Source of the DNA: Patescibacteria group bacterium
GTDB lineage: Bacteria > Patescibacteriota > Microgenomatia > Levybacterales > UBA12049
Direction of reading: 5' to 3'
Length of the DNA: 64,000 nt
Assembly: GCA_038064195.1 (NCBI GenBank)
Contig: JBBTTO010000002.1
Coordinates: forward strand, 402,387 to 466,386
Part shown: positions 15,268-60,534 of the stretch, piece by piece
Numbering within the stretch: position 1 is the stretch's first letter
Layout of the letters: each line of letters starts with the position of its first letter
Program-made: the position numbers and the translations under genes
Notes under the pieces: model-generated
What the model was told of the DNA's origin: nothing
Seen by the model: only the letters and a program-made list of their open reading frames with translations
Database searches by the model: none

Positions 15268-15480
15268 TTTTTGTTCATACTTTTGAACCGCCAAAAGTAT
15301 GCAAAAGCTCGTGAGCTAGTGAGCGGTCACTAAATTTTCTCCTTCGTTAGTCGGGGGAATTCGGCCCCCTCATCCACACGCTGCGCTCGGTCTGGAATCC
15401 CCCTGACAACTCAGTCGAAAATTTTTAACGTGCTGCGCTCAGCGCTCACAATAAAGCACGCAAAGTGGCGAAATTAGGAA
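15268..15480 (+). ncRNA. intergenic structured element, copy R3 of a 4-member family (putative novel ncRNA)
   Basis: P1 hairpin CATACTTTT-gaaccgcc-AAAAGTATG, then CAAAAGC. P2 helix GTGAGC (15304-15309) pairs with GCTCAC (15443-15448). Long-range helix gTCGGGGGAATT (15343-15354) pairs with AATCCCCCTGAc. The 3' end GGCGAAATTAGGAAC resembles R1. Confidence 0.45.
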
Positions 15481-15503
15481 CTATTTAAAGATTCAGTGTT
15501 ATA

Positions 15504-15791
15504 ATGATCAATATGAAGAGTCGGGGGAACGAGGAGCTTATTAAAGAGATAGATGAGAAGTTAAGTATCAAAGTTTCACCTGATGCCAAGTCCACAATCC
15601 TGACCATCCGTAATCTTATCGAATCAAATTCTCGAGTGGAGGAGTCAATTGACGAGTTGCATCAAAGTATAACTGTTGCCAATAAAGAGAATGGAAAGCT
15701 CCAGACGAGAGTATATTACCTCACAATCGTTACAGTTACCCTGACTATAGTTCAAGTCATCGGCGTCATCGTCCAACTCCTTAATAAATAG
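15504..15791 (+). CDS. hypothetical small protein with C-terminal TM helix
   Basis: 95 aa with a coiled-coil-like N-terminus and hydrophobic tail YYLTIVTVTLTIVQVIGVIVQLL. Confidence 0.4.
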   Translation: MINMKSRGNEELIKEIDEKLSIKVSPDAKSTILTIRNLIESNSRVEESIDELHQSITVANKENGKLQTRVYYLTIVTVTLTIVQVIGVIVQLLNK

Positions 15792-18235: not shown

Positions 18236-18490
18236 TTATACACAGAGAGCCTTTTTTTGCTCGTGGGTAAGTGTTTTTAATCTGGCTTCTTCAGAACAGG
18301 CTTCTGAATGGGTTGAGAATTCTTTTTGATACACAAGTTTTACGGGGCGGCGAACTCTCGTGTATTTGGCCCCGCCTTTGATCTCACCATTGTGCTGTCT
18401 GAGTCTATTGACTAAATTACTTGTTTTGCCTGAGTAAAGCGATCCATCGGCACAGAGAAGAAGATACGTGTAGAAGTGTCTATTTGGCAT
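18236..18490 (-). CDS. GIY-YIG nuclease superfamily small protein (UPF0213-like)
   Basis: FYTYLLLCADGSLYSGKTSNLVNRLRQHN is a canonical GIY-YIG block. Confidence 0.7.
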   Translation of the reverse strand: MPNRHFYTYLLLCADGSLYSGKTSNLVNRLRQHNGEIKGGAKYTRVRRPVKLVYQKEFSTHSEACSEEARLKTLTHEQKKALCV

Positions 18491-18499
18491 TTGTATAAT

Positions 18500-18574
18500 G
18501 TATTATGTAGCCTGTATAGGTATAAATAAAAGGTATTAATCATACATTATACATACTACTTGATACATGCTACA
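18500..18574 (+). repeat. direct repeat DR1 (GTATTATGTAG...TTATACATACTACTTGATACAWGCTACA); second copy at 21804-21869
   Basis: An 11-mer plus a 28-mer (27/28 identical) shared with the rarA upstream region; both copies sit about 45 nt upstream of a gene start. Confidence 0.6.
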
Positions 18575-18618
18575 TTTTACTCGCTTTACTTATTTAGTGG
18601 AAATACTACAATAACAGT

Positions 18619-20918: not shown

Positions 20919-21800
20919 ATGCTGACCAGCGCACATACTTTACGCTTGGCCGCGTCCTCACTGCTCGGGGCGATGTTAGTCCCTCTCGTGGCTTCGATAT
21001 CCACTGTTTCAGCTTCAGATCCTCTTTTACTCACCTCTCCCGTTACTACCGCAAATTCTGAACAAAATCTCTGTCTGGCAACTCTGCCTGACAGCCTGAT
21101 GGAGCTTAATTATGCTTTGACACCGGCTCGCTTTGAGCGTGTCGACGCAAGTAATGTCAATTCAGTCGTCATTACGCAAGCAAAAGACGGTATGCTCCAC
21201 TCATTCGGTAGTGAGAAAACAGTCCTGAGTAAAGCAACCATTGAGGAGTTAGTAGATGCTAATACCACACCTACGCCGATCCAACCGGTTCAGGAACCAG
21301 TCGTCACGATCATTCCGACCGCTGAAGTCTTAGCTGCTGAGGATCAGGTATCGAGCTCTCAGCTAAGTGCGGATGTCTTATTTAATCTGGTAAATGCGAC
21401 ACGTGCGAACTATGGACTCGCGCCTTTTCAAAAAGACGATCGAATCTGTAATGTGGCTGTCTCACGTGCGCCTGAGCTGGATAGTGAAATTTGGGTTACT
21501 CGTACCATGCACGCGGGCTTTTACGCGCGTAATCTTCCGTACTGGGCAACTGAAAACGTCATCAGTACGCGGACTGAACAGCAGGCACTCAACTGGTGGA
21601 TGCATTCGCCTGTCCATAGATCAGCACTGCTTGGTAACTGGAAATATGCCTGTGTAGCATGTAGTGGCAAGTCATGTAGTATGATTTTTACCAACTTTGA
21701 TATGAAGCAGACAGCTCCAGTAATTCAAGTAGCAACACCCACACCTGCGACTGCAGGAGTAACTCCTCAAGCATCTGTCGGACAGACTCCTGTTTTGTAG
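20919..21800 (+). CDS. secreted CAP/SCP/PR-1 domain protein (YkwD-like)
   Basis: Signal peptide; Ser/Thr/Pro-rich linker; C-terminal CAP block YGLAPFQKDDRICNVAVSRA...HSPVHRSALLGNWKYACVACSG. GC is about 50 %. Confidence 0.65.
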   Translation: MLTSAHTLRLAASSLLGAMLVPLVASISTVSASDPLLLTSPVTTANSEQNLCLATLPDSLMELNYALTPARFERVDASNVNSVVITQAKDGMLHSFGSEKTVLSKATIEELVDANTTPTPIQPVQEPVVTIIPTAEVLAAEDQVSSSQLSADVLFNLVNATRANYGLAPFQKDDRICNVAVSRAPELDSEIWVTRTMHAGFYARNLPYWATENVISTRTEQQALNWWMHSPVHRSALLGNWKYACVACSGKSCSMIFTNFDMKQTAPVIQVATPTPATAGVTPQASVGQTPVL

Positions 21801-21803
21801 TAA

Positions 21804-21869
21804 GTATTATGTAGTAGGTATCACGTATGAAAGGTATCTTCTTATACATACTACTTGATACAAGCTACA
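21804..21869 (+). repeat. direct repeat DR2, copy of 18500-18574
   Basis: gtattatgtag...ggtat...ttatacatactacttgatacaagctaca. Confidence 0.6.
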
Positions 21870-21896
21870 ACTCACTCTCTATGTTAGAATGGGGCT

Positions 21897-23099: not shown

Positions 23100-23280
23100 G
23101 TTTTTTCTGTACTTTTTCCCGCAAAAAGTACCAAAAGCTCTCGCCCTGTCTTCCTCAATGCAGAAAAATATGATTCGCTCATTAAAAGTTAGTGCTATTG
23201 ACTTGCAACTTTTACCCTTCAGGTCATTCTCTCATCATATTTTTCTAGGCTTTCGACGCGAACGGGCGATCATAGGAACC
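23100..23280 (+). ncRNA. intergenic structured element, copy R1 (putative novel ncRNA family)
   Basis: Starts 1 nt after the rarA stop. P1 GTACTTTTT-cccgc-AAAAAGTAC, then CAAAAGCTCTCG. P2 CGCCC (23143-23147) pairs with GGGCG (23264-23268). P3 TAAAAGT-variable loop-ACTTTTA. About 85 % identical to R2 in the conserved blocks, with compensatory changes. Confidence 0.5.
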
Positions 23281-23311
23281 TTATAAAAAAACGATTCTTT
23301 ATTAAGAGGAG

Positions 23312-29965: not shown

Positions 29966-29992
29966 ATCTTCTCGAATTTATTTAATTTAAGG

Positions 29993-30180
29993 TTTTTTCT
30001 GTACTTTTTTCCGCAAAAAGTACCAAAAGCTCTCGTCCAGTTTTGCTCAATGCAGAAAATGGCGACTCGTTCATTAAAAGTTACGGCCTCCACTGAGTTT
30101 CGCCTTTCAACTTTTACCCTTCGGGTCATTCATTCGCCACCATTTTCTAGGCTTTCGCGGCAAGTGGACGATCAGAGGAG
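29993..30180 (+). ncRNA. intergenic structured element, copy R2 (closest paralog of R1)
   Basis: Same P1 hairpin (loop tccgc) and CAAAAGCTCTCG. P2 CGTCCA (30036-30041) pairs with TGGACG (30164-30169), compensatory relative to R1. The P3 stem is conserved with a different, longer loop. The indel pattern breaks any common reading frame. Confidence 0.5.
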
Positions 30181-30469
30181 TTTATTATATGAAAAATGAT
30201 TTATTCAGCTGGTTTTCAAAAAACTCTTATATGTTTCTTACGGGATTTTAAGCAGGCTCTTATACATGAGTAATATGATCTAGGTCATAGAACTTGGTGG
30301 AATTTGGAGGTAAAGTAATATAACAGGTTAAGGAGTTTGTCCACCATGACTTACTTTTCGCCTTAGATCATTTGATCTGCGGCTCAAAGAGCGTTCAATT
30401 GGCGGACTTAAGACTCTCTAATTCTGATTTCTAGCAAAATCAGAAAGAGACTCTAAAGGAGGTGAGAAT

Positions 30470-30646
30470 ATGGCAGGTAAATCAAAACGAGGCTTTGCCT
30501 CAATGTCTAGTAGTAAGCAGCGAAGTATCGCCAGTAAAGGCGGTAAAGCAGCGCATGCCAAAGGGACAGCGCATGAATTTACGAGTGATGAGGCTCGTAA
30601 AGCAGGGCGTAAAGGTGGAATCGCACGACAACGAAAAGATCGCTAG
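30470..30646 (+). CDS. KGG-repeat general stress protein (YciG/con-10-like), 58 aa, below the track's 60-aa cutoff
   Basis: MAGKSKRGFASMSSSKQRSIASKGGKAAHAKGTAHEFTSDEARKAGRKGGIARQRKDR; strong RBS aaaGGAGGtgagaatATG. The overlapping track ORF 30462-30698 is in another frame and looks spurious. Confidence 0.55.
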   Translation: MAGKSKRGFASMSSSKQRSIASKGGKAAHAKGTAHEFTSDEARKAGRKGGIARQRKDR

Positions 30647-44469: not shown

Positions 44470-44660
44470 ATATATTCTTCTAAAAACGTGCTTTTTAGAA
44501 CAAAGCGCGTAAATAAATTGTGAGTGAGTTGTCAGGGGGAATCCGGTCCTTTAGTGGCCGAAGGGGGAGGACAATCCTCCCGACAACGAACGAACAATTT
44601 TAGTGCGACTTCGCAAAGCACGCAGTTTTGTACACTTTTGCTGCCACGCCCTATGAAATA
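44470..44660 (+). ncRNA. intergenic structured element, copy R4 (R3-like)
   Basis: P1 TTCTAAAAA-cgtgc-TTTTTAGAA (44478-44500), then CAAAGCGCG; GTGAGTGAG; GAGTTGTCAGGGGGAATCCGG (reverse complement of the R3 motif GGAATCCCCCTGACAACTC); AAAGCACGCA shared with R3. Boundaries approximate. Confidence 0.35.
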
Positions 44661-44747
44661 GTAGTCCCTTGAGGAAAAGTGCAAAGAAAATCTTTTCCAA
44701 CAAAAAAGCTCACACTTTGTGAGCTTTTAAGCAGAAAAACCTAGTGC

Positions 44748-45005
44748 TTATGCAGCCATAGGTGCTTCATTTGTGTCGTCAGTGTTACCTGCGTCACTTG
44801 TGCCGGCAGAAGCGCGGGCTACATTTTTTGCAAAAGGGCCTTTATCGCCACTTCCCATTTCAAATGTAACTTTGTCGCCTACTTGAATATCATCCCAAGT
44901 CCATCCTTGCAGATCATTGGAATGGAAAAATAGATCTTTTTCTTCGCCATCACGACTAATGAATCCGAATCCTTTTTCTGTCTTTACTTTAATTATACCT
45001 TGCAT
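44748..45005 (-). CDS. cold-shock protein (CspA family) with an acidic C-terminal tail
   Basis: MQGIIKVKTEKGFGFISRDGEEKDLFFH, the RNP1-type motif. Confidence 0.8.
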   Translation of the reverse strand: MQGIIKVKTEKGFGFISRDGEEKDLFFHSNDLQGWTWDDIQVGDKVTFEMGSGDKGPFAKNVARASAGTSDAGNTDDTNEAPMAA

Positions 45006-50033: not shown

Positions 50034-51493
50034 CCCTTTTTCTCCTCCTCAGGCTGCCGACTCTGACTCAGCTTCCGATCTTTACCGATGAGGCAATTTA
50101 TCTCAGGTGGGCACAAATTGCTCTTCAGGATGCCGGTTGGCGTTTTATCTCACTCACCGATGGGAAGCAGCCGCTTTTTATCTGGGCAGTTATTGTCTCT
50201 ATGAAATTTTTAAAAGATCCGCTTGTGGCCGGGAGAATTGTCTCAAGTGGTGCCGGACTGTTGACGATGCTCGGCCTTTTTTTCTTAGGTCGTGAGGTTT
50301 TCAAAAATAGATGGGTAGGTATAGTGAGTGCCGCTCTTTACTGTATTTTCCCATTTGCTTTGGTTTATGACAGGATGGCGCTCTATGATAGCCTGGTCGG
50401 TACTTTTGCTGTCTGGGGATTATATATGACCTTTTTGTTATTTCGTCGGCCCACGCTTGATAAAGCGCTCCTGATGGGATTTGTGACAGGTGCTGCAGCT
50501 CTTAACAAAACCAATGGATTTTTTACGATTTATCTGCTGCCTTTTGCTGCTATTCTTTTTGACTTCAAAGACAAACTTTGGCAAAAGAAATTCATTCGTC
50601 TTGTTGGCCTATCTTTGCTCGTTGTTGTAATGACGTATGGCTTTTACTCAATCCTTCGTCTATCACCATTTTTTTATATCATCAAACAAAAAAACGCTAT
50701 CTTTTTCTATCCCCTTGGGGAGTGGATTCATCATCCCTTTATGAGTGTTCTCTCCAATTTTTCAGCCTTTGCTGATTGGTTTATGCGTTATGTCGGACTT
50801 CCACTGAGCTTGACAGCCCTGGCCGGATTGATAATTGACAAAAAATTTTGGCGTGAGAAAGTCCTTCTTTTGCTCTGGTTTCTGCTTCCCTTTATCGGTT
50901 TTGCCTTTATCGGAAAGACTGTTTATCCCCGCTATATTTTCCCGATGACCCTCACGCTTCTACCCTTGACCGCGTATACCATTGTGAAATTACAGGAGAA
51001 AATTTCACGCAGCAAATGGATCCTGGTTGTCATCCTTGTCCTGGGCTATTCGGTTCTGACAGACTTTCTTATTATTTATAATTTCGCGGGTTCCCCAGTC
51101 CCGAATGCCGATAAAGGGCAGTACTTGACCGCATGGCCTGCCGGGGTTGGGGTAAAAGAAGCTACTGATTATTTCCGGATGCAGGCAGCATCCCGTCCGG
51201 TTTATATAGCAACCGAGGGTACCTTCGGTCTGTTGCCTTATGCTTTTGAGCTTTATTTGGTCAACAATCCTAACGTCACCATTAAAGGGTTTTGGCCGAT
51301 TAAGAGTCAACCCCCTCAAGAACTCTTGGATGCAGCCAAAAAGCAGGATACCTATATTGTTTTCTATCAGGATTGTCCTGTCTGTAGTGGGGTAGGGGTG
51401 GCGCCGAGTACCTGGCCGCTTCAGAAAATCATGCAGCTGAAGCGTATTGAAGCAGGCTCGTATTTTACTCTCTATAAAGTTATAGCACCATGA
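49979..51493 (+). CDS. GT39/GT83 (ArnT/PMT)-like lipid-carrier-dependent glycosyltransferase
   Basis: LPIFTDEAIYLRWAQIAL matches the FxxDEARYA motif; polytopic. The 5' end overlaps the upstream gene by 55 nt, so the start is uncertain. Confidence 0.6.
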   Translation: MGFVTKYKSEILFSLGIVALFLLLRLPTLTQLPIFTDEAIYLRWAQIALQDAGWRFISLTDGKQPLFIWAVIVSMKFLKDPLVAGRIVSSGAGLLTMLGLFFLGREVFKNRWVGIVSAALYCIFPFALVYDRMALYDSLVGTFAVWGLYMTFLLFRRPTLDKALLMGFVTGAAALNKTNGFFTIYLLPFAAILFDFKDKLWQKKFIRLVGLSLLVVVMTYGFYSILRLSPFFYIIKQKNAIFFYPLGEWIHHPFMSVLSNFSAFADWFMRYVGLPLSLTALAGLIIDKKFWREKVLLLLWFLLPFIGFAFIGKTVYPRYIFPMTLTLLPLTAYTIVKLQEKISRSKWILVVILVLGYSVLTDFLIIYNFAGSPVPNADKGQYLTAWPAGVGVKEATDYFRMQAASRPVYIATEGTFGLLPYAFELYLVNNPNVTIKGFWPIKSQPPQELLDAAKKQDTYIVFYQDCPVCSGVGVAPSTWPLQKIMQLKRIEAGSYFTLYKVIAP

Positions 51494-53889
51494 AAAGGTT
51501 TTCCCTCCTACCTGTTAGCCTTCTTTTACTTATTATCCTTGTCTTTTTCTACCCGATTTTTAAAGGCTGGATCCCTTTCCCGGGAGATTTAGTAGTTAGC
51601 ACCCCACCATACAGTACGCAATCCTTCCTGGGGTATGCACCGGGTGGCGTTCCTAATAAAGCCCAAGGACCTGATGTTATCAGGGAGTCAATGCCTTGGA
51701 AATTCTTTGCTATAACGAGTTTTAAAAAAGGCGAGATTCCTTTTTGGACGCCCTACAATTTTTCGGGCAATCCCCTCATGGCCAATTTTCAGAGCGCTGT
51801 CTTTTATCCGCTTAATGCTATTTTCTTTAGTTTTCCCTTTTTGAGTGCCTGGACGATTTTTATTACCCTTTCACCTTTGTTGTCTGGGTTATTTACCTAC
51901 TTCTTTTTGCGTTCACGTAATCTGTCTACTGTAGCAAGTCTTTTTGGTGGTGTTGTATTTGCTTTTTCCTCATATATGGTTGTCTGGCTTGAGTGGGGGA
52001 ATATCACCCATACCCTGTTGTGGTTGCCTTTAGCCCTTTTCTTTACCGAAAAGTATCGTACCAAAGCCAAGTGGCAGTATCTGTTGGCGCTGGTCGGTTC
52101 GCTGTGGCTGTCTTTTTTGGCAGGCTATATTCAGGAGTTTTTTTATCTCATCATTGTTGTGGCTCTCTATTATTTCGCCTTTGAATTTGGTCTCCTCAAA
52201 AAGTCTCTGCCTAAAGCAGGTATTTTTCTGATCTCTCTTATTTTTCCGGTATTGTTATCGTTATTCCAGCTTTTACCGACATTATCTCTGCTTGCTATCT
52301 CATCTCGTAACAGTTATTCGCTCACACAAATAACGGCCCTCCTTAATCCCTGGTGGTATGCCATAACGATTTTTATTCCTGATTTTTTTGGCAATCCTGC
52401 CGCTCGCAATTTTTGGTTTGTCGGTACGTATATTGAGAGAGTCTCATATTTCGGGGTGATACCGTTCTTACTGGCCGCAACTGCTCTCTTTAGCAAAAGA
52501 AAAGATGTGATGATTTTCTCCTCCATTTTTGCAGTTTGCCTTCTACTCTCACTTGACGTATTCGGAGTCAAATATCTTTACCTTCTGCCTCTGCCGATGC
52601 TCTCGACCACCGTCCCTACCCGAATATTGGGCATTCTTTGTTTTAGTGGCGCGGTGCTGAGTGCTTATGGGCTGGACGCATTGAGGGAAGGGATTTCAAG
52701 GAAGCGTTTTTTTCTGTCAATCCTGCTTGGCGGATTTTTACTCAGTATTGCCTGGGTGTTTGTTTTTTTCGGTTCTCATTTTTTTACGAAAATTTCACCT
52801 GAAAGCTTTGCGGTTACCAGACACAACCTCATCATTCCCACTTTCTTGAGTTTTATTTTTGTGGTTGCAGTTGTGATTCGCTTCAGTACGCTGTTTCGCA
52901 AAATTCCCAGGGCTGCAACCCTTCTTGTTATCTGTCTTTTTGTTATTACACTCGGAGATCTTTTTTATTTTTTCCATAAAATTACTCCCTTCGCACCGCG
53001 TGAATTTGTCTATCCGAGGACACCGGTTATTTCGTACTTACGAGAACACGCAGGTATTAACAGATTCTGGGGATATGGTTCAGCCTACATCAGCAGTAAC
53101 TTCCAGACCTATGACAAGACATTCTCACCCGAGGGGGATGATCCTCTTCATACTAAAATTTATAGCGAATTCATTGCCGCCTCAAATGACGGCAAGTTGC
53201 CGGTAGTAGCATCCCGTCTGGATGCCAATATTAAAGGGGGCTATGGCCCCACAGACCTGAGGAGTAATTTCTATCGTGAGCGGGTCATGGCGATCCTGGG
53301 TGTCAAATATATCCTGAACAAGAATGATTCACTGGGGAGTGAGCAGGATCCTGATACGGGAACTTTCCCCCATGAGAAATATCGCCTTGTCTGGCAGCAG
53401 GCACCCTGGCAAGTCTATGAAAATCTATCAGTTATTCCCAGAGCTTTTCTTACAAACGACTACCGCGTGATCTCAGATCCACAGTCAGCACTTAGCACGT
53501 TATTCAAGCCTGATTTTGATCTTGAGAAGACAATTGTTCTTGATCAGGATCCGCATCTGTCGAAAGGATCCTTGACGAGAAAATCCGTCAAGGTTGTCAG
53601 TTATCAGCCAAATCAGGTTGTGATAGAGACGGTATCAAATGCTGATGCCCTGCTTTTTTTATCGGATACCTATACACCTGACTGGACAGTTACAATTGAT
53701 AGCAGAAATGCTACAGTATATAGAGCTGATTATGCCTTTCGGGCGGTACCAATAACAAAGGGGCAGCATACAGTAATTTTTTCTTATTACCCGGCATCAT
53801 TTGACATGGGACTCAGGGTAAGTATCGGCTCATTTATCGTTATGGTTATAGGACTGGTCATCGCAAAAAAGAGAAAAATACTTGTCTGA
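51490..53889 (+). CDS. YfhO-like large membrane protein (lipid-linked glycan transferase candidate)
   Basis: 799 aa with about 14 TM helices and a C-terminal soluble beta-rich domain ending in a final TM; the layout resembles the YfhO family. Confidence 0.45.
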   Translation: MKRFSLLPVSLLLLIILVFFYPIFKGWIPFPGDLVVSTPPYSTQSFLGYAPGGVPNKAQGPDVIRESMPWKFFAITSFKKGEIPFWTPYNFSGNPLMANFQSAVFYPLNAIFFSFPFLSAWTIFITLSPLLSGLFTYFFLRSRNLSTVASLFGGVVFAFSSYMVVWLEWGNITHTLLWLPLALFFTEKYRTKAKWQYLLALVGSLWLSFLAGYIQEFFYLIIVVALYYFAFEFGLLKKSLPKAGIFLISLIFPVLLSLFQLLPTLSLLAISSRNSYSLTQITALLNPWWYAITIFIPDFFGNPAARNFWFVGTYIERVSYFGVIPFLLAATALFSKRKDVMIFSSIFAVCLLLSLDVFGVKYLYLLPLPMLSTTVPTRILGILCFSGAVLSAYGLDALREGISRKRFFLSILLGGFLLSIAWVFVFFGSHFFTKISPESFAVTRHNLIIPTFLSFIFVVAVVIRFSTLFRKIPRAATLLVICLFVITLGDLFYFFHKITPFAPREFVYPRTPVISYLREHAGINRFWGYGSAYISSNFQTYDKTFSPEGDDPLHTKIYSEFIAASNDGKLPVVASRLDANIKGGYGPTDLRSNFYRERVMAILGVKYILNKNDSLGSEQDPDTGTFPHEKYRLVWQQAPWQVYENLSVIPRAFLTNDYRVISDPQSALSTLFKPDFDLEKTIVLDQDPHLSKGSLTRKSVKVVSYQPNQVVIETVSNADALLFLSDTYTPDWTVTIDSRNATVYRADYAFRAVPITKGQHTVIFSYYPASFDMGLRVSIGSFIVMVIGLVIAKKRKILV

Positions 53890-55540
53890 TATGAAGAGAT
53901 TTTTTTGGGTTTTATTAGGGCTTATTTTTTTAGTTGCTCTTTTTCTGAGATTCTCGCAACTTGCCAAAATCCCTGTCGGATTTCATACCGATGAGGCATC
54001 GCTTGGCTACAACGCCTATTCACTCCTTATGACCGGTAAAGATGAGGCAGGACGTGCTTTCCCGCTTTATATTGATACGTTCGGTGATAATAGGCCGACG
54101 GGCTATAACTATCTTGCTATGCTGCCGATTAAATTTTTCGGCTTGAGTATTTTTGCGACCCGCTTACCATCCGCACTCTTTGGTAGCATGTCTGTTTTTG
54201 CCATTGCCTTTCTTTCTTTTGTTCTTTTCAAGAACAAAAAGATTGCTCTTTTAACAGGCATGCTTTTGGCCATCGCTCCCTGGAGTGTTGTTTTATCCCG
54301 TGCCAGCGATGAGGCAGTTGTAGCACTTTTTTTCATCCTTATCGGCTTTGCCTTTCTTTTTTTGAGTTTACGATCCAAGAGACAGTTGTACATTATTTTA
54401 GGAGGCTTATTTCTCCTCATAAGCTTCTTTTTTTACCACACCCCCCGTGTTTTTGTCCCTATGCTTTTTCTCGTCTTCCTGGGATATTTTTTCTGGCAGT
54501 TTCGTACCCGTCTCTCCCGGACTCACCATACGCTGATGATCTCTGTTTTTTGTTTACTGTCTGTCATAGCAGTCTATCTGGTTTTTCTTGTTAGCGGCGG
54601 GACGGGACGTTTTTCACAAGTCAATATTTTTACTTTTCCTGAGACCAAACTTGTTATGCAGGAGCAAATTCGTGAAGACGGAAGTATGCATGCACCGCTC
54701 ATTACGACACGTGTATTCCACAATAAATTAGTTAATTATCCGCTCACTTTTGTCTCAAATTACCTGACTTATTTTACCGGGGACTTCCTTTTTATCAAAG
54801 GCGGACTGCCGATCTGGTATCAAGTCCCCTCTATGGGTTTGCTGTACCTTATCGAACTGCCATTCTTACTTTACGGTCTTTTCCTCTTATGTAAAAGTGA
54901 TGATCCGTTGAGTAAGTTACCGCTTTTGTGGTTACTTATTGCACCGGTTGTCTCCTCAATTACCGTGGACGATGTTCCCAACGTTAACCGCGTTATCGTC
55001 CTTTTCCCGATTATGGAGGTGATTGTCGGATATGGCCTCTATACCTTTGTGACTAAGTTTAAAAAAAATACAAAGTTATTCATTTCAGTTGGTGTAACTT
55101 TGTTGTTTATAGCTAATTTGCTCTATTTTCAGCATCAGTACATCGTCCATGCATCAACGCACCGAACATGGTATCGCAATAATGGCTTTGATCAGATGGT
55201 TGCTACACTTCAGGAGTCCTATGCCGGGTCTGACCGGATTATTGTCACCAAATCCATGGGTAGTATGTATCCGCTCATCCTTTTTTATATGAAATATGAC
55301 CCTGCTCTCTACCAAAGAGAAGGCTCAAGCAAAGACCGCGAATATACAGGCTTTGGCAAATTCCTTTTTGTTCCTCAAGACTGTCCGTCTATCACCAAAG
55401 ACAGCCGTTTCCCGATAGGGCATAACCTTATCTATATTAATAACGGTAACTGTCCGGATGATAAAGGTAAGTTAGTTAAAAAGCAGGTTATCATCAATCG
55501 TGAAGACGGGACCAAGGCCTTCAAAATAGTCTATGACTGA
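53882..55540 (+). CDS. GT39/PMT_2-like membrane glycosyltransferase
   Basis: FHTDEASLGYNAYSLLMTGKDEAGRAFPLYIDTFGDNRPTGYNY, the DE-motif loop; polytopic. Confidence 0.6.
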   Translation: MSDMKRFFWVLLGLIFLVALFLRFSQLAKIPVGFHTDEASLGYNAYSLLMTGKDEAGRAFPLYIDTFGDNRPTGYNYLAMLPIKFFGLSIFATRLPSALFGSMSVFAIAFLSFVLFKNKKIALLTGMLLAIAPWSVVLSRASDEAVVALFFILIGFAFLFLSLRSKRQLYIILGGLFLLISFFFYHTPRVFVPMLFLVFLGYFFWQFRTRLSRTHHTLMISVFCLLSVIAVYLVFLVSGGTGRFSQVNIFTFPETKLVMQEQIREDGSMHAPLITTRVFHNKLVNYPLTFVSNYLTYFTGDFLFIKGGLPIWYQVPSMGLLYLIELPFLLYGLFLLCKSDDPLSKLPLLWLLIAPVVSSITVDDVPNVNRVIVLFPIMEVIVGYGLYTFVTKFKKNTKLFISVGVTLLFIANLLYFQHQYIVHASTHRTWYRNNGFDQMVATLQESYAGSDRIIVTKSMGSMYPLILFYMKYDPALYQREGSSKDREYTGFGKFLFVPQDCPSITKDSRFPIGHNLIYINNGNCPDDKGKLVKKQVIINREDGTKAFKIVYD

Positions 55541-57203
55541 CTTCATTACGCTGCATAAAAGATTGGTTTTTGCATGTGTTGTTTTTTTGGCAATTTTTCT
55601 TCGTTTTTATCAACTAGGAGTCAACCCTCCATCGCTTGACTGGGATGAGACTAGTATTGGCTACAATGCATACTCGATTTTACATACAGGCAAGGACGAG
55701 TATGGGAATAGACTTCCTTTAAGTTTTCGCTCATTTGATGATTACAAGCCGCCTATTCTTATCTATTTGACAGTACCGAGTGTGGCGATTTTTGGCTTGA
55801 CAGAGCTTGCAGTCCGTCTGCCGGCTGCAGTTTTTGGCGTCATTGGCGTGATTGCAGTTTATTTCCTGGTTAAAGAATTGTTACAAAGCAAATCCGGAAA
55901 AAAAACTATTACTCCGGAAGTGCAGCAATCCATAGCCTTTTTAGCTATGATTTTTCTGGCAATATCGCCCTGGCACCTTCAGTTCTCTCGGGCGGCTTTT
56001 GAAGGCAACATCGGACTCACATTTTTGCTTCTTGCACTTATTTTCTTTTTTAAAGCGTGGCAGAAGGCATATTACTATTTTCTTTTTTCTCTTTTCTTCA
56101 TTTTGAGTATGTATTCATATCATAGTTTTCGCTTGCTTGACCCTCTGGTATTACTTATATTGATTGTTTTTTTCACAAAGCAGCTTTTACAACAAAAAAA
56201 GATCTTTATATTTTCTTTTATTTTGATAGTTCTATCCACAATTCCGATTTATACTAGCGTTTTTGCGTCTCAGGGTACGGGGGCGAGGCTTTCAATGGTG
56301 ACGGTTTTTTCTGATCCGCGTCTCCAGCAAATTTCAGCCGAGCAGGTCTTACTGGCCAAAAAGCAGCACAACATCCTTAATCAACTGCTTTATGATCGAC
56401 GGATTATCTTTATTCCAAGTATTGTTAAAGGCTATTTCGATCATTTTAATTTCGATTTTCTCTTTGTTCATGGTGATGGGGGAGTCCAACACCATGCATA
56501 TCAAATGGGCATGCTTTATCTCTGGGATTCCCCCTTTGTTATTGCAGGTATTATTTTTTTACTGCGACATAGAACAAAACGTATTCTTTTATTGTTCCTT
56601 ATTTTTATTCTGGCGCCTCTTCCATCTGCAATTACGACAGGTACCCCGCATCCAGTGCGGGCAATCGCAATGATGCCGGCCTTTCAGATTTTTGCAGCAA
56701 CTGGTATCGTTTGGCTAGCAGTATTTTTACAAAAAAAGAAGAAGTTCAACCTCATTGCGATCTCTGTGGTTGTTCTGCTATTTGCCATAAATTTTGTTTA
56801 TTATTTGAATAGCTATTTTGTTTTGACACCGATTCACTACGGTTATTTCTGGCAGTTTGGCAATAAAGAGGCAGTGCTTTATGCCAAAGCCCACGAGAGT
56901 GAGTATGAGCAAATTATTATGACGTATACCTATGATCAACCCTATATTTATTATCTTTTTTATCATAAAATCGATCCTGTTTGGTATCAAAAGAACTGGA
57001 ATTATAGTGAGAACGGGGAAGTCCAACGTTTTTATCGTAAGATCGGGAAGTATGAATTCATGAATATCACACCTAAGGACTTTTCGCGCAAGAAGACATT
57101 ATTGATCGGTACGCCTTCAGAGATACCAGACAATGTGGGTGAGATCAAAGAGGTGATTCACTTTCCGGACGGGAGAGTTGCCTACAAAATTGTAGCTTTA
57201 TGA
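55533..57203 (+). CDS. GT39/PMT_2-like membrane glycosyltransferase (paralog of 53882-55540)
   Basis: LDWDETSIGYNAYSILHTGKDEYGNRLPLSFRSFDDYKPP, the same loop motif. Confidence 0.6.
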   Translation: MTDFITLHKRLVFACVVFLAIFLRFYQLGVNPPSLDWDETSIGYNAYSILHTGKDEYGNRLPLSFRSFDDYKPPILIYLTVPSVAIFGLTELAVRLPAAVFGVIGVIAVYFLVKELLQSKSGKKTITPEVQQSIAFLAMIFLAISPWHLQFSRAAFEGNIGLTFLLLALIFFFKAWQKAYYYFLFSLFFILSMYSYHSFRLLDPLVLLILIVFFTKQLLQQKKIFIFSFILIVLSTIPIYTSVFASQGTGARLSMVTVFSDPRLQQISAEQVLLAKKQHNILNQLLYDRRIIFIPSIVKGYFDHFNFDFLFVHGDGGVQHHAYQMGMLYLWDSPFVIAGIIFLLRHRTKRILLLFLIFILAPLPSAITTGTPHPVRAIAMMPAFQIFAATGIVWLAVFLQKKKKFNLIAISVVVLLFAINFVYYLNSYFVLTPIHYGYFWQFGNKEAVLYAKAHESEYEQIIMTYTYDQPYIYYLFYHKIDPVWYQKNWNYSENGEVQRFYRKIGKYEFMNITPKDFSRKKTLLIGTPSEIPDNVGEIKEVIHFPDGRVAYKIVAL

Positions 57204-58864
57204 TAAAAAAAATCTATCCCGGTTTATTGCTTATTGTTTATTGTTTACTGACCTCCTTGCCTGTCATCCTGCCTTATTTTCACCCGGGCTATTTCCCCAC
57301 ACATGACGGTGAATGGGCTGTAATACGATTAGGTGATATGTTCAGGAGTTTACGTGATCACCAATTTCCTGTGCGTTTCAGTGGCAACCTTAACTTTGGC
57401 TATGGCTATCCGCTATTTAACTTCACCTATCCTGCCCCTTATTACATCGGAGTTCTTTTTCATTTCCTCAAATTCGGCTTTGTCGATACGATTAAAATAC
57501 TCTTTGCCCTGAGCGTTGTCCTCTCCGCGATCGGGATGTTTTTGTTATCAGCCAGGCTTTGGGGTCATAAGATGGCAGGCTTCATTAGCGCATTTTTATA
57601 TGTTTATTTTCCCTACCGCATAGTGGATCTGTATGCACGGGGGTCAATTGGTGAATCACTTTCTTTTGCTCTCTTTCCGTTTGTTCTTTTTTTTCTTGAT
57701 AGGATTCTTTCGGGGAATAAGACATATTTATATGTAGCGCTCGGTTCACTGAGTTATGCGTTGCTTATTTTGACGCACAATATTATGGCAGTCCTTTTTA
57801 CCCCTGTTCTTATAGTTTTTATTTTTGGGAGGATGTATTTTGAAAAGTCCAAAAATTTTTTACCTCCTCTTGTTTTTATTACCCTCAGCTTTATCCTGTC
57901 CGCATTTTTTTGGTTACCGGCACTTGTTGAAAAAAACAGTATTCTTCTTTCCCGTATTCCCATAGCTGATAGGAGTATTTACTTTGTCAATCTGTCTCAG
58001 TTGATCATTCCTCGGTGGGGATATGGTCTGCCTGATCATCCGGACGGTTTTTCTTATCAAATCGGCTTGCCGCATATTATTATAGTTCTTACCGTCTTAG
58101 GTCTTTTACTTTATTTTTGGCAAGCCAGGAAAAAAGTTCTGACGAAATATCATTTTCAGTTGTCCGTTCTTTTACTTATTATAGTTGTGGCTTTTGTGTC
58201 TATGATGTTTTCTGTGAGTTCTCTGCTTTGGCAGGCTCCTCTGCTTAAAGAAATTAATTATCCTTGGACACTTCTTGGGCCTCTATGTTTTGTGATCAGT
58301 CTTCTGGCGGGGTTTCTTTGTTTGCAGCATAAGTTCATCAAATACCTCTCAGTTGTTCTCTGTGTTGTAGCTGGTATACTTATTCTGCCCAATGCCAGGC
58401 CGTCTTCGTATTTTGACAAGGGGGATAGTTATTATTTGACCAATGACGCGACGACGACCTCGTCGAGGGAGTTAATGCCTTTATGGGTCAAGACCCAGCC
58501 TTCTCTCCGCGTGGAGCAAAAGGTAGAAGTTATAAAAGGGGAGGGAAGTATCTCAAATAGTTTTGCTGATTCGCGTTTAATTACTTTTGTCGTTGATGCC
58601 AAAGACAAGATAACGCTGCGGATCAATACCATTTATTATCCGGGGTGGACTATACAAGCTAACGGAGTTGCTGTCCCGATTGATTATACGAACAGGCTTG
58701 GAGTTATGGATATCACTGTTCCCGTCGGGCGGCATGAGATTATCGCGAAGTTTGGGGAGACGCCATTGAGACTTACTGCCGATATCCTGTCGCTGGTTGG
58801 AATTATCATTGTCTTGTATCTGATTATAATGGATCGCTTCAAGATCAAATTTTTAAAATCATGA
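57200..58864 (+). CDS. polytopic membrane protein, GT-C/YfhO-related (PTPS-related membrane family-like)
   Basis: FHPGYFPTHDGEWAVIRLGDMFRSLRDHQFPVRFSGNLNFGYGYPLFNFTYPAPYYIG; C-terminal YYPGWTIQANGVAVPIDYTNRLGVMDITVPVGRHEI beta-domain followed by a final TM. Confidence 0.45.
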   Translation: MIKKIYPGLLLIVYCLLTSLPVILPYFHPGYFPTHDGEWAVIRLGDMFRSLRDHQFPVRFSGNLNFGYGYPLFNFTYPAPYYIGVLFHFLKFGFVDTIKILFALSVVLSAIGMFLLSARLWGHKMAGFISAFLYVYFPYRIVDLYARGSIGESLSFALFPFVLFFLDRILSGNKTYLYVALGSLSYALLILTHNIMAVLFTPVLIVFIFGRMYFEKSKNFLPPLVFITLSFILSAFFWLPALVEKNSILLSRIPIADRSIYFVNLSQLIIPRWGYGLPDHPDGFSYQIGLPHIIIVLTVLGLLLYFWQARKKVLTKYHFQLSVLLLIIVVAFVSMMFSVSSLLWQAPLLKEINYPWTLLGPLCFVISLLAGFLCLQHKFIKYLSVVLCVVAGILILPNARPSSYFDKGDSYYLTNDATTTSSRELMPLWVKTQPSLRVEQKVEVIKGEGSISNSFADSRLITFVVDAKDKITLRINTIYYPGWTIQANGVAVPIDYTNRLGVMDITVPVGRHEIIAKFGETPLRLTADILSLVGIIIVLYLIIMDRFKIKFLKS

Positions 58865-60534
58865 ATATAGCTAAAAAGATACTTCCTGTTGTTTCAATCC
58901 TTACTCTTTCCTTATTGGCTATCCAGCCTTTTTTTCATAAGGAGTTTTTCCCGATTCATGATGCCACGCAAGTAGCGCGTGTTTTTGAGATGCACCAGTC
59001 ACTCCAGGGCTTGATGTTTCCTGTTCGCTGGGTGCAGGATTTGGGCTATGGCTATGGCTATCCGATTTTTTCTTTTTATGCCCCTCTTGCGTATTATCTC
59101 GGAGCATTTTTTATGTTTCTCGGTTTTTCCGCTCTCCTTGCAACTAAAATAATGATTGCCCTTGGGGTGGTACTTGCCGGTGTGACTATGTATTTTTTTT
59201 CCAAGGAGCTTTTTGGCGAAAAAGCAGGTGTTCTTTCAGGAGTCCTTTATGTTTTTGCTCCTTATCATGCACTTAATATTTATGTCCGCGGCGCAATAGG
59301 CGAGGTATGGGCGTACGCTTTTATTCCCTTAGCATTCCTCGGCTTTTTGCAAATTGCCAAAAAGCCGACATGGATCTCTATTTCCTTGGCGGTAGGGGGA
59401 CTTGTCGGCATCATTATTTCTCATAACTTAACCGCTTTGATCGTGGCTCCTTTCCTCCTGGTCGAAATTGCTGTTTTATTTTTCCGTTTTCCCGGTAAGG
59501 CTTCCCGTAAGGGTCTATTGCTTGGGTTGATATTGTCTTTTTTAATCAGCAGCTGGTATACATTACCGGCAGTTTTTGAAATGGGGTATACCAATGTTGT
59601 CTCCCAAACCGGCGGAGGTTCTGATTATAAAGATCACTTTGTTTGCCCTTCGCAGTTATGGTCGAGTCAATGGGGATTTGGGGGTTCGACAAGCGGTTGT
59701 CTGGACGGTCTTTCATTTCAGATAGGGAAAATTCATATCTTACTGGCAGCTATCGGATTAAGTAGCGTATTATTTCTTAAACGCAAAAAAGAACGCAGAA
59801 TCGGATTACTCCTCGCGTTGGGAATACTCGTAGCAACTCTTATGGTGTTACCGGTGACCAAACCTCTCTGGGATACTCTCTCTTTTATGAAATATCTGCA
59901 ATTCCCTTGGCGTTTTCTGCAGATTGACCTTTTTTTCATCTCTCTTCTTGGTGGTTTTTCCGTCTTTCTTTTTGCTTTTATTGAGGAGCGTCTAAAAACA
60001 AAATACAGCGGAGTTGTTATCCTGAGTTTGACTATTACTATTCTCGGTATAGCTTTCTTCTACACCAAATTATTTCAGGCCCAGTTTTTCTATGATCCAT
60101 ATCCTGACCAAACAAAAAAATCGACATTGAATTGGGATATTTCCAGGATTTCTGACGAATATCTTCCTGCTACTTTTTCCAGGCCTCATTCCAGGGATGA
60201 AGTTCCGTCGCTGCCTTACCGGCCAACTGAGACTGCCAGTGTTGAGATTCTTGTAGATACACCTGGCCAGCTTATTTTATCTGTTAATGCTGTAGCTGAT
60301 AGTCATCTGATTTTGAATCGGGCATATTTTCCGGTGTGGCATATCACTCTCGATGGCCACCGTGCCTCCTACGCTATCGGGAACGGCTTGTATGATGTCG
60401 TTATTCCTGAGGGCAGTCACAACTTGACTGTAGTTTTTGAGCAAACCCCGCTTGAGCGGGTGAGTAATATTCTGTCACTGGTTGGCATTGTCCTGCTGGT
60501 TCTTGGTATACTATTGAGGAGATTTACTCTATAA
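58861..60534 (+). CDS. paralog of 57200-58864 (same membrane family)
   Basis: FFPIHDATQVARVFEMHQSLQGLMFPVRWVQDLGYGYGYPIFSFYAPLAYYLG; C-terminal AYFPVWHITLDGHRASYAIGNGLYDVVIPEGSHNL followed by a final TM. Confidence 0.45.
   Translation: MNIAKKILPVVSILTLSLLAIQPFFHKEFFPIHDATQVARVFEMHQSLQGLMFPVRWVQDLGYGYGYPIFSFYAPLAYYLGAFFMFLGFSALLATKIMIALGVVLAGVTMYFFSKELFGEKAGVLSGVLYVFAPYHALNIYVRGAIGEVWAYAFIPLAFLGFLQIAKKPTWISISLAVGGLVGIIISHNLTALIVAPFLLVEIAVLFFRFPGKASRKGLLLGLILSFLISSWYTLPAVFEMGYTNVVSQTGGGSDYKDHFVCPSQLWSSQWGFGGSTSGCLDGLSFQIGKIHILLAAIGLSSVLFLKRKKERRIGLLLALGILVATLMVLPVTKPLWDTLSFMKYLQFPWRFLQIDLFFISLLGGFSVFLFAFIEERLKTKYSGVVILSLTITILGIAFFYTKLFQAQFFYDPYPDQTKKSTLNWDISRISDEYLPATFSRPHSRDEVPSLPYRPTETASVEILVDTPGQLILSVNAVADSHLILNRAYFPVWHITLDGHRASYAIGNGLYDVVIPEGSHNLTVVFEQTPLERVSNILSLVGIVLLVLGILLRRFTL

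Follow-up and report, generated by a model that had tools for sequence, protein, structure and literature searches.

Intergenic repeats of the ERIC/IRU, Correia, RUP, BOX and REP/REPIN types are short (100-200 nt), multicopy, non-coding sequences that form imperfect rods. Their presence varies between related genomes, and they are often transcribed within neighbouring mRNAs. We analyzed a family of elements similar to them in size, copy number, shape, intergenic location and variable presence, in a 64,000-nt stretch of the genome of a Patescibacteria group bacterium (assembly GCA_038064195.1, contig JBBTTO010000002.1, positions 402,387 to 466,386; the window). The window contains three intact copies, R1, R2 and R3, and a fourth locus, R4, that by its alignment is a decayed copy. 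ERIC/REP-type repeats are lineage-restricted, and what defines them is either terminal inverted repeats or a REP palindrome associated with a RAYT gene. In contrast, the elements described here carry a module of 31 nt at one end only, which recurs across phyla, is joined to more than 40 different bodies and is accompanied by strand-specific G-U pairs. An invariant module that spans phyla and is joined to many unrelated bodies makes an unusual combination. With about even confidence, we read R1-R3 as multicopy cassettes for small structured RNAs, gained by insertion and ending in a constant 3′ handle.

The solo guide RNAs of IS200/IS605 elements (TnpB omega-RNA and the HEARO RNA of IscB) are likewise structured and multicopy, occur in many phyla and often lack an adjacent open reading frame (ORF). 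They measure 150-300 nt and, as here, the element boundary is marked by a conserved terminal hairpin. However, no tnpB, iscB or tnpA gene lies beside any of the listed loci of the present family (at least 119, see below), the Rfam models for HEARO and IS605-orfB give no match, and only one end bears a hairpin. A reverse transcriptase or nuclease family cognate to a retron or to a TnpB/IscB guide RNA was not found within 2.5 kb of these loci. 6S RNA resembles the elements in being a rod of ~180 nt whose two ends pair and which contains internal loops and an apical stem, but it is present in one or two copies and kept among relatives, whereas the elements number three to four in 64 kb, are missing from the close relatives sampled except for one variant copy, carry an extra 3′ hairpin and are not matched by the Rfam 6S models. 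Sibling small RNAs (Qrr, LhrC and similar) are also several paralogous, separately located genes of shared structure. These differ in being conserved at the genus level, in having canonical terminators and in lacking both a cross-phylum module and insertion at variable sites.

The preliminary description of the window had recognized no known RNA family at these loci, and our searches bear this out. Rfam 15, run at gathering thresholds, reports two tRNAs as the only matches in the window, and the R1 and R3 regions returned nothing but noise on both strands at E ≤ 10. Among 28 source scans of loci in other genomes (about 25 distinct), a single element was matched, as discussed below. A literature search found no paper containing the DNA or RNA motif strings of the module, and nothing relevant was found in the literature on non-coding RNA and repeats of Patescibacteria, Balneola and the candidate phyla radiation (CPR). 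In kind, the family, which is not in Rfam, resembles bacterial structured intergenic repeats or sibling small RNAs.

Intact copies, conserved module and probable RNA sense

R1 (23100-23300; likely RNA sense, minus strand) spans the entire gap between the convergent genes for MgsA (plus) and a histidine phosphatase (minus). On the plus strand, R1, R2 and R3 share one order of parts: an A/U-rich hairpin at the start, termed P1, directly followed by the linker CAAAAGCTC and then by the helix that closes a long imperfect rod. In R1, P1 (GTACTTTTT/CCCGC/AAAAAGTAC, 23109-23131) is palindromic and can therefore form on both strands. The R1 linker (23132-23140) reads GAGCUUUUG in the likely RNA sense. 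The rod (23141-23269, minus) consists of a closing helix (TCGCCC, 23141-23146, with GGGCGA, 23264-23269), a 13-bp helix (23162-23174 with 23234-23246) and an apical stem (23183-23190 with 23207-23214) enclosing a loop of 16 nt. R2 (29992-30200, minus) is an intact paralogue of R1, with P1 at 30001-30023, the linker at 30024-30032 and an apical loop of 26 nt. The internal stem TAAAAGTT/AACTTTTA described earlier for both copies, with loops of these two lengths, is thus present. R1 and R2 are 88% identical across the first 92 nt and 72% across the next 105 nt. R3 (15268-15490, minus) is intact as well, with P1 (CATACTTTTG-AACCGC-CAAAAGTATG) at 15276-15301 and the linker at 15302-15310. It shares only the first ~45 nt with R1 and R2 and represents a separate body type with the core GTCGGGGGA...AATCCCCCTGAC.

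A search of the window with a covariance model built from P1 and the linker recovers precisely these three loci (51-56 bits: R1, 55; R2, 56; R3, 51.5). The next-best matches, at 15.6 bits or less, are the same hairpins on the other strand. Note that CAAAAGCTC alone is unremarkable, with 22 window matches at one mismatch versus 22 expected. Each locus folds ~2.7-3 standard deviations better than dinucleotide shuffles. The module of an A/T-stem hairpin followed by CAAAAGC(T)C, originally reported for four loci, is a feature of R1-R3, and R4 does not match its model. The long-range helices CGCCC/GGGCG (R1), CGTCCA/TGGACG (R2) and GTGAGC/GCTCAC (R3) do exist. However, that of R3 is not located at positions aligned with the other two; it is the architectural equivalent of the R1/R2 closing helix within another type of body. 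The three copies start 1, 27 and 2 nt past a plus-strand stop codon, within the reported range of 1-28 nt. Conservation at the protein level is absent, as had been stated, because indels interrupt any reading frame. We also rejected a small ORF as the conserved entity: ORFs of 72-85 codons in Balneola copies are spurious, a 20-codon ORF occurs behind R2 only, and the indels shift the frame.

To define the distribution of the module, we used the exact pattern ACTTTT-N5-10-AAAAGTA-N1-2-CAAAAGCTC (22 fixed bases) on 596 Gb of species-representative genomes. We estimate that ~1 match would arise by chance (22 fixed bases, 12 gap combinations, 1.2e12 positions), and at least 119 loci were found; those in other genomes are given L numbers. 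By record title, the matches listed comprise 43 loci labelled as Patescibacteria (Levy-, Sacchari-, Gracili-, Peri- and Buchananbacteria, Microgenomates), 37 from Balneolales, 17 from metagenome-assembled genomes (MAGs) of 'uncultured Gammaproteobacteria', about 10 from Oscillospiraceae and relatives, 5 from Bacteroidia (Chitinophaga, Pedobacter, Flavobacteriales and others), 2 from Gastranaerophilales, one each from Syntrophomonadaceae and Thalassomonas, and 3 probable chance matches within ORFs. The gammaproteobacterial label is doubtful because the bodies cluster with Patescibacteria types. Levybacteria or Microgenomates body types occur in such MAGs at L003, L004, L029, L045, L049, L050, L061, L076, L082, L086, L094-L096, L107 and L118; judged by these bodies, the MAGs have probably been mislabelled. 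The family occurs in several phyla and is not confined to the CPR. Plasmid and phage collections gave only chance matches inside coding sequences, IMG/VR a single weak module locus, and ~16 kb of sequence beyond the window no further copy.

The elements measure ~130-220 nt. Whereas the 31-nt module is nearly constant base for base across phyla, the bodies sort into more than 40 unrelated sequence clusters. The R3 body type recurs at L006, L018, L028, L042, L050, L051, L097, L107, L118 and L120. Variants of the module end in GTAAAACTGAGCTC at L120 and in CAAAAGATC in partner units of Balneola. At 11 Balneola loci (e.g. L022, L027, L032, L038, L052, L075, L099) a second, divergent unit with the module variant CTACTTTTG-TCTTGATA-CAAAAGTAG-CAAAAGATC lies in inverted orientation, the two P1 hairpins being 45-85 nt apart. 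These pairs are two complete units and not the two ends of one. The loop of the partner variant is complementary to a CTTGAT a few nucleotides upstream, making a pseudoknot possible.

In every real match, a helix closing a long hairpin comes after the module. In 46 of 105 copies this helix is perfect over 6 bp or more, compared to 17 expected. Over 97 distinct copies, P1 pair 13-22 is GC in 60, CG in 24, UA in 8, AU in 1, GU in 1 and unpaired in 1, and pair 5-31 is GC in 50, UA in 11, AU in 5 and CG in 4. The P1 covariation score was reached by 0 of 500 shuffles; note that the invariant positions are partly imposed by the search pattern. The P1 loop varies from 4 to 10 nt, and the stem is longer in Oscillospiraceae (CCC-GCGA-GGG). 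Because loop length varies and the stem is extended in some lineages, P1 is a folded hairpin and not a double-stranded DNA operator. The latter reading, and that of a recombinase core, we rejected on these grounds and because a position that would otherwise be free is paired in 96 of 97 copies.

As to the bodies, the RNAalifold consensus of R1 and R2 contains 47-52 pairs. Seventeen paired columns differ between the two copies: 14 of them make up seven compensatory pairs, three are wobble-compatible changes and no pair is broken. The closing helix contributes two of the compensatory pairs (C-G to U-A), the long central helix the other five. When the 3′ partners were slid by 1-3 columns as a control, 0-2 compensatory pairs and ~50% pairing remained. 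With two sequences and a structure derived from both, the R1/R2 covariation is suggestive and not statistical. Local hairpins of the R3 type also covary across genomes (GGGUGA/UCACCC versus GGGAGG/CCUCCC; CCUCA/UGAGG versus CCGAC/GUCGG). Together, these data show that hairpin and rod are both maintained by compensatory change. In addition, orthologous Balneola copies are 91-96% identical versus 86-90% in their flanks, a sign of purifying selection on the copies. The covariation whose absence would have spoken against the preliminary description is thus present, both in P1 across the 97 copies and between R1 and R2.

P1 had originally been taken for the 5′ element of a plus-strand RNA. We folded the 170-nt bodies on both strands and found the strand opposite to this plus-sense (P1-first) strand to be more stable in 97 of 107 copies, with mean energies of -52.3 versus -45.8 kcal/mol. 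The opposite strand was better in all 39 copies of four CPR subfamilies (R1, R3, Gracilibacteria and Saccharibacteria types), in 23 of 25 Balneola copies and in 4 of 6 Oscillospiraceae copies. Alignment-based consensus folds agreed in 7 of 7 groups. The Gracilibacteria type forms 25 consensus pairs with 65 G-U cells on the opposite strand, compared to 14 pairs; cluster 8 has 34 G-U cells versus 3; the R1 type has 25 pairs versus none. For R1 and R2, consensus energies are -46.6 kcal/mol (minus strand) and -33.7 kcal/mol (plus strand). Their central helix runs uninterrupted for 13 bp, wobble pairs included, on the minus strand, whereas A-C mismatches interrupt it on the plus strand. In the RNA sense, the linker GAGC and the U run pair with the 5′ end via G-U pairs, so that the rod is closed by its own two ends and P1 projects 3′. 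By these models, structural selection in R1-R3 most likely acts on the minus strand, and the unit likely reads 5′-rod-GAGCUUUUG-P1-3′. As the opposite strand is favoured, the conserved hairpin would be a 3′ module and not a 5′ hairpin.

The sole body recognized by Rfam is modelled on the opposite strand too. At L021 (4310-4586, Thalassomonas sp. M1454), a TwoAYGGAY RNA (RF01731; 49.5 bits versus a gathering score of 43) lies on the proposed RNA-sense strand with its 3′ end against the linker. TwoAYGGAY shares clan CL00106 with CsrC and PrrB/RsmZ, according to the Rfam hit tables. The likeness does not extend to the family: TwoAYGGAY was matched at L021 only, and the window copies lack AYGGAY/ANGGA loops and have no Rfam match. 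L021 could be one of the few chance matches to the pattern. The TwoAYGGAY consensus had no match in E. coli genomes, and no detail on its flanking sequence was found in the literature. A further hairpin with an AUGGAC loop follows the RNA at L021. In a Pedobacter MAG (L079, 1682-2087), an element is flanked by two DUF805b RNA motifs (RF02914), each of which precedes a gene; the arrangement resembles an insertion into a duplicated array of DUF805b-regulated genes.

A unit, read in the RNA sense, would accordingly comprise a rod-like body of ~100-190 nt with paired 5′ and 3′ ends, GAGCUUUUG, and an A/U hairpin of 9-10 bp, GUACUUUUG-(N)CGG(N)-CAAAAGUAC. Bodies are particular to a lineage or type and would carry the lineage-specific activity; the module, 3′ in this reading, is constant. 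Such units may be transcribed as stable small RNAs, in which case about half of the copies must use a promoter of their own, since the gene on their 5′ side is divergent. The module might serve as the handle for one common trans-acting partner, acting in 3′-end formation or protection, in protein binding or in mobilization of the unit. Whole cassettes would be copied to new intergenic sites, and body types would be swapped by recombination between the shared ends.

Several points weigh against this reading. The trans-acting partner is hypothetical, and the patchy, insertion-like occurrence suits selfish DNA equally well as functional RNA. A consensus scan of R1-R3 found neither a sigma-70 -35/-10 pair nor an intrinsic terminator, and a position-specific count revealed no -10-like box enriched at a fixed distance across types. 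The C/T-rich composition of the plus-sense strand could inflate the strand test based on minimum free energy. In Balneola, G-U cells are commoner on the plus-sense strand (33 versus 12), although the consensus energy still favours the opposite strand. Finally, P1 of Oscillospiraceae has a GNRA-like GCGA loop, which takes this form on the plus-sense strand only.

Empty sites, decay and the mobile DNA alternative

The sample of relatives consisted of 80 metagenomic loci (together 852 kb) whose MgsA is 65-88% identical. The full module model had no match in these contigs; a single variant, at L120, was found via the hairpin alone. At the R1 site of L121, L134 and L129, the MgsA stop codon abuts the stop codon of the convergent phosphatase gene, compared to which the window has 212 extra nt (23100-23311). 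In the closest relative, L120 (MgsA 88% identical), R1's junction is occupied by an element of the R3 body type (2150-2372) with the module variant ATACTTTTGGCAGCAAAAGTAT-GTAAAACTGAGCTC, reflecting either an independent insertion or an exchange of bodies between shared ends. At the R2 site, the intergenic region measures 110-140 nt without element in L122 and L128, versus 505 nt in the window. Proteins flanking the empty orthologous sites are 70-89% identical. The element, being absent from orthologous sites and, apart from the L120 variant, from the 852 kb of relatives, thus behaves as an inserted, multicopy sequence and not as a conserved housekeeping RNA. The absence from relatives that the preliminary description would have held against its proposal applies to close relatives and not to bacteria at large. 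Strain-level variation at R2 was uninformative, as the eight contigs recovered were at least 99.8% identical.

R4 (44478-44655) provides evidence of decay. The preliminary description placed four loci of one architecture on the plus strand. This is correct for R1-R3 and wrong for R4, because the plus strand of R4 aligns with the reverse complement of R3. The inner core of R4, GAGTTGTCAGGGGGAATCC...CCTCCCGACAACGAACG...TTTTAGTG, is colinear with R3 and with R3-type copies of other genomes (L120, L097), each taken as its reverse complement, and R4 resembles the variant element of L120; its RNA sense would be the plus strand. In that orientation R4 ends in GCAGTTTTG-TACACTTTTG-CTGCC-ACGCCCTATG, corresponding to a linker remnant (44622-44630), a single P1 arm (44631-44640) and the loop. 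The P1 hairpin cannot form because the 3′ arm is replaced by ACGCCCTATG, and the module covariance model gives no match at R4 even at E ≤ 10. The hairpin TTCTAAAAA/TTTTTAGAA and the CAAAGCGCG of R4, proposed as the equivalents of P1 and CAAAAGCTC, are not homologous to them; the hairpin is situated at the opposite end of the element from P1. By this alignment R4 is an inverted, degenerate copy of the R3 type. Like R1, it is located between convergent genes. A hairpin at 44700-44728 (AAAAAGCTCACA-CTT-TGTGAGCTTTT), similar to a bidirectional terminator, lies between R4 and the convergent gene for a cold-shock-domain protein (44748-45005). Of the original proposal of an undescribed non-coding RNA, what stands is that the copies are structured, non-coding, paralogous, covarying and not in Rfam; the inclusion of R4 does not, nor, most likely, does the strand.

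These findings must be weighed against a reading of the elements as non-autonomous mobile DNA of the MITE (miniature inverted-repeat transposable element), PATE or REPIN kind, with an incidental RNA fold. We consider this unlikely, if worth serious attention. A transposase encoded elsewhere, for example a Y1/HUH enzyme acting on single-stranded DNA, would move the unit after recognizing its hairpin as a subterminal end. Orthologous sites filled in one relative and empty in another, multiple dispersed copies without fixed neighbour (together with the presence/absence polymorphism, a MITE-like trait), a decayed copy, different body types at the same site in sister genomes (the window and L120) and the inverted pairs at 11 Balneola loci would all fit. 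So would the exact end of conservation at the hairpin and a weak candidate for an 11-nt target-site duplication at R1 (ATGAAGAATAA versus ATTAAGAGGAG), which agrees at 7 of 11 positions by eye in the single alignable comparison (L134, L121).

However, no clear target-site duplication is present and the hairpin is one-ended. Terminal inverted repeats are lacking, the end without hairpin being unrelated (AAAUGGGGAG in the Gracilibacteria type; GUUCCUA in R1 and R3). A MITE with terminal inverted repeats and target-site duplications, named at the outset as the element that would overturn the RNA proposal, was thus not found. Nor were subterminal hairpins at both ends or paired REPs, as in IS200/IS605 PATEs or REPINs; each unit has one hairpin. 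Transposase, reverse transcriptase and integrase domains are absent from the 30 window ORFs scanned (Pfam), no such gene lies near the listed loci, no protein family is enriched within 2.5 kb of them, and the module hardly occurs in plasmids, phages or IMG/VR. Since DNA hairpins tolerate G-T pairs poorly, the retention of many G-U pairs on one strand is a sign of selection on RNA. As copies, R1 and R2 are old (72-88% identity), and compensatory change has kept their structure. We also rejected an integron attC site: the ends read GTTTTTT...AAAAAAC and not AAC...GTT (RYYYAAC...GTTRRRY), the copies are 7-15 kb apart and no integrase was seen.

Ends, gene context and the remaining alternatives

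In the RNA-sense alignment of the Gracilibacteria type, conservation begins abruptly at AAAUGGGGAG and ends at the final base of P1, and a semi-conserved TGATGnAA box lies 8-20 nt upstream. Boxes that look like -10 elements are found just upstream of the RNA-sense 5′ ends of R1 (TATAAG), R2 (TATAAT) and R3 (TAAATA). Next to P1, the flanking gene runs in the direction of the plus-sense strand in 57 of 88 copies; at the opposite end this applies to 42 of 86. Thus, orientation relative to flanking genes is close to random. A cis-regulatory 5′ untranslated region was rejected on account of this near-random orientation and of the location of R1 between convergent genes.

The elements might instead act in cis as intergenic sequences similar to REP or ERIC, stabilizing mRNA 3′ ends, insulating convergent genes or terminating transcription, with the long stem followed by GAGC-UUUU as an unusual terminator. 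The gene context offers this some footing. A convergent gene points its 3′ end at the hairpin end in 57 of 88 copies, and its stop codon is often 8-16 nt away; R1 and R4 are both flanked by convergent genes; the Balneola hairpin ends face each other at 45-85 nt, similar to terminators of convergent units; and in the RNA sense a rod precedes a run of four U. However, the terminator scan was negative at R1-R3, and the features of an intrinsic terminator are missing: P1 is A/U-rich and followed by A-rich sequence, and the U run is set off from the rod by GAGC and also pairs with the 5′ end. The module is conserved base for base across phyla, whereas we know of no such conservation in terminators or REP-like elements. 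Moreover, close relatives manage the same gene junctions without the element. We therefore hold a role of this kind to be improbable.

Least probable of all, in our assessment, is the plus-strand RNA of the preliminary description, in which P1 would be the 5′ element of a 3′ untranslated region or separate small RNA following the upstream gene: the intact copies do lie 1-27 nt past co-directional stop codons, the hairpin-side gene is co-directional in 57 of 88 copies, the GCGA (GNRA) loop of Oscillospiraceae is on the plus-sense strand, and unpaired C-rich motifs (CCCCCU, CCUCC) would suit an anti-Shine-Dalgarno regulator, but the other strand has the better folding energies and G-U counts, with few exceptions among copies and subfamilies, A-C mismatches interrupt otherwise continuous helices, and the TwoAYGGAY body is modelled on the other strand.

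Other motifs noted by eye were likewise set aside. A hammerhead or a box C/D k-turn in R1 (UGAUGA...CUGA) is not kept in R2, and Rfam gives it no support. Three further candidates, a group II intron domain V, an anti-Shine-Dalgarno mimic and the CS-6 motif of single-strand origins, are each inconsistent across body types.

Within the window, the genes next to the elements are unrelated housekeeping genes. Directly after R2, at 30190-30252 on the plus strand, lies an ORF of 20 codons (MKNDLFSWFSKNSYMFLTGF) with an AGGAG ribosome-binding site and without counterpart behind R1 or R3; a gene for a 58-residue KGG-repeat stress protein follows at about 30470-30646. Beside the end of R3 (15488-15506), a perfect TATAAT is located ~6 nt upstream of the ATG of a 95-codon ORF at 15504, and no Shine-Dalgarno sequence is visible, suggesting a leaderless mRNA starting right beside that end. 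Two direct-repeat families at 18490-18585 and 21794-21880 (TTTGTATAATGTATTATGTAG...; TTATACATACTACTTGATACA.GCTACA; 79-87% identical) lie just upstream of the plus-strand genes for an LD-carboxypeptidase (18619) and MgsA (21897), and may be a shared promoter or operator region. From 51490 to 60534, and continuing into L209, at least five paralogous genes for large membrane proteins (~550-800 residues; PMT_2, YfhO, PTPS_related) are interleaved with glycosyltransferase genes, forming a large glycosylation cluster for a 1-Mb genome.

Possible meaning of a constant handle

Beyond the window, we tentatively propose that the family may be an unrecognized cross-phylum class of small-RNA gene cassettes, in which dozens of unrelated structured bodies share a 3′ handle that hardly varies (GAGCUUUUG plus the GUACUUUUG...CAAAAGUAC hairpin); this wider proposal is possible but doubtful. 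The unusual pairing of a constant handle with many bodies points to a shared trans-acting partner. If the proposal is true, an undiscovered common partner would bind, process or mobilize these RNAs, for example an RNA-binding protein or a system of RNA-templated copying, and structured RNAs would have a modular route by which to spread between genomes.

If the elements are selfish DNA, they would constitute an atypical mobile element, one-ended and without ORF, conserved across phyla and under structural constraint at the RNA level. In either case, the module is a simple annotation marker for hundreds of unannotated intergenic elements. The occurrence of the element in a cultured isolate, Balneola sp. 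EhC07, with at least 6 copies, makes it open to experiment. If it is an RNA family, it would rank among the more widespread structured RNAs of bacteria that Rfam does not yet contain, and be frequent in Patescibacteria, a group about whose non-coding RNA, to our knowledge, almost nothing is known.

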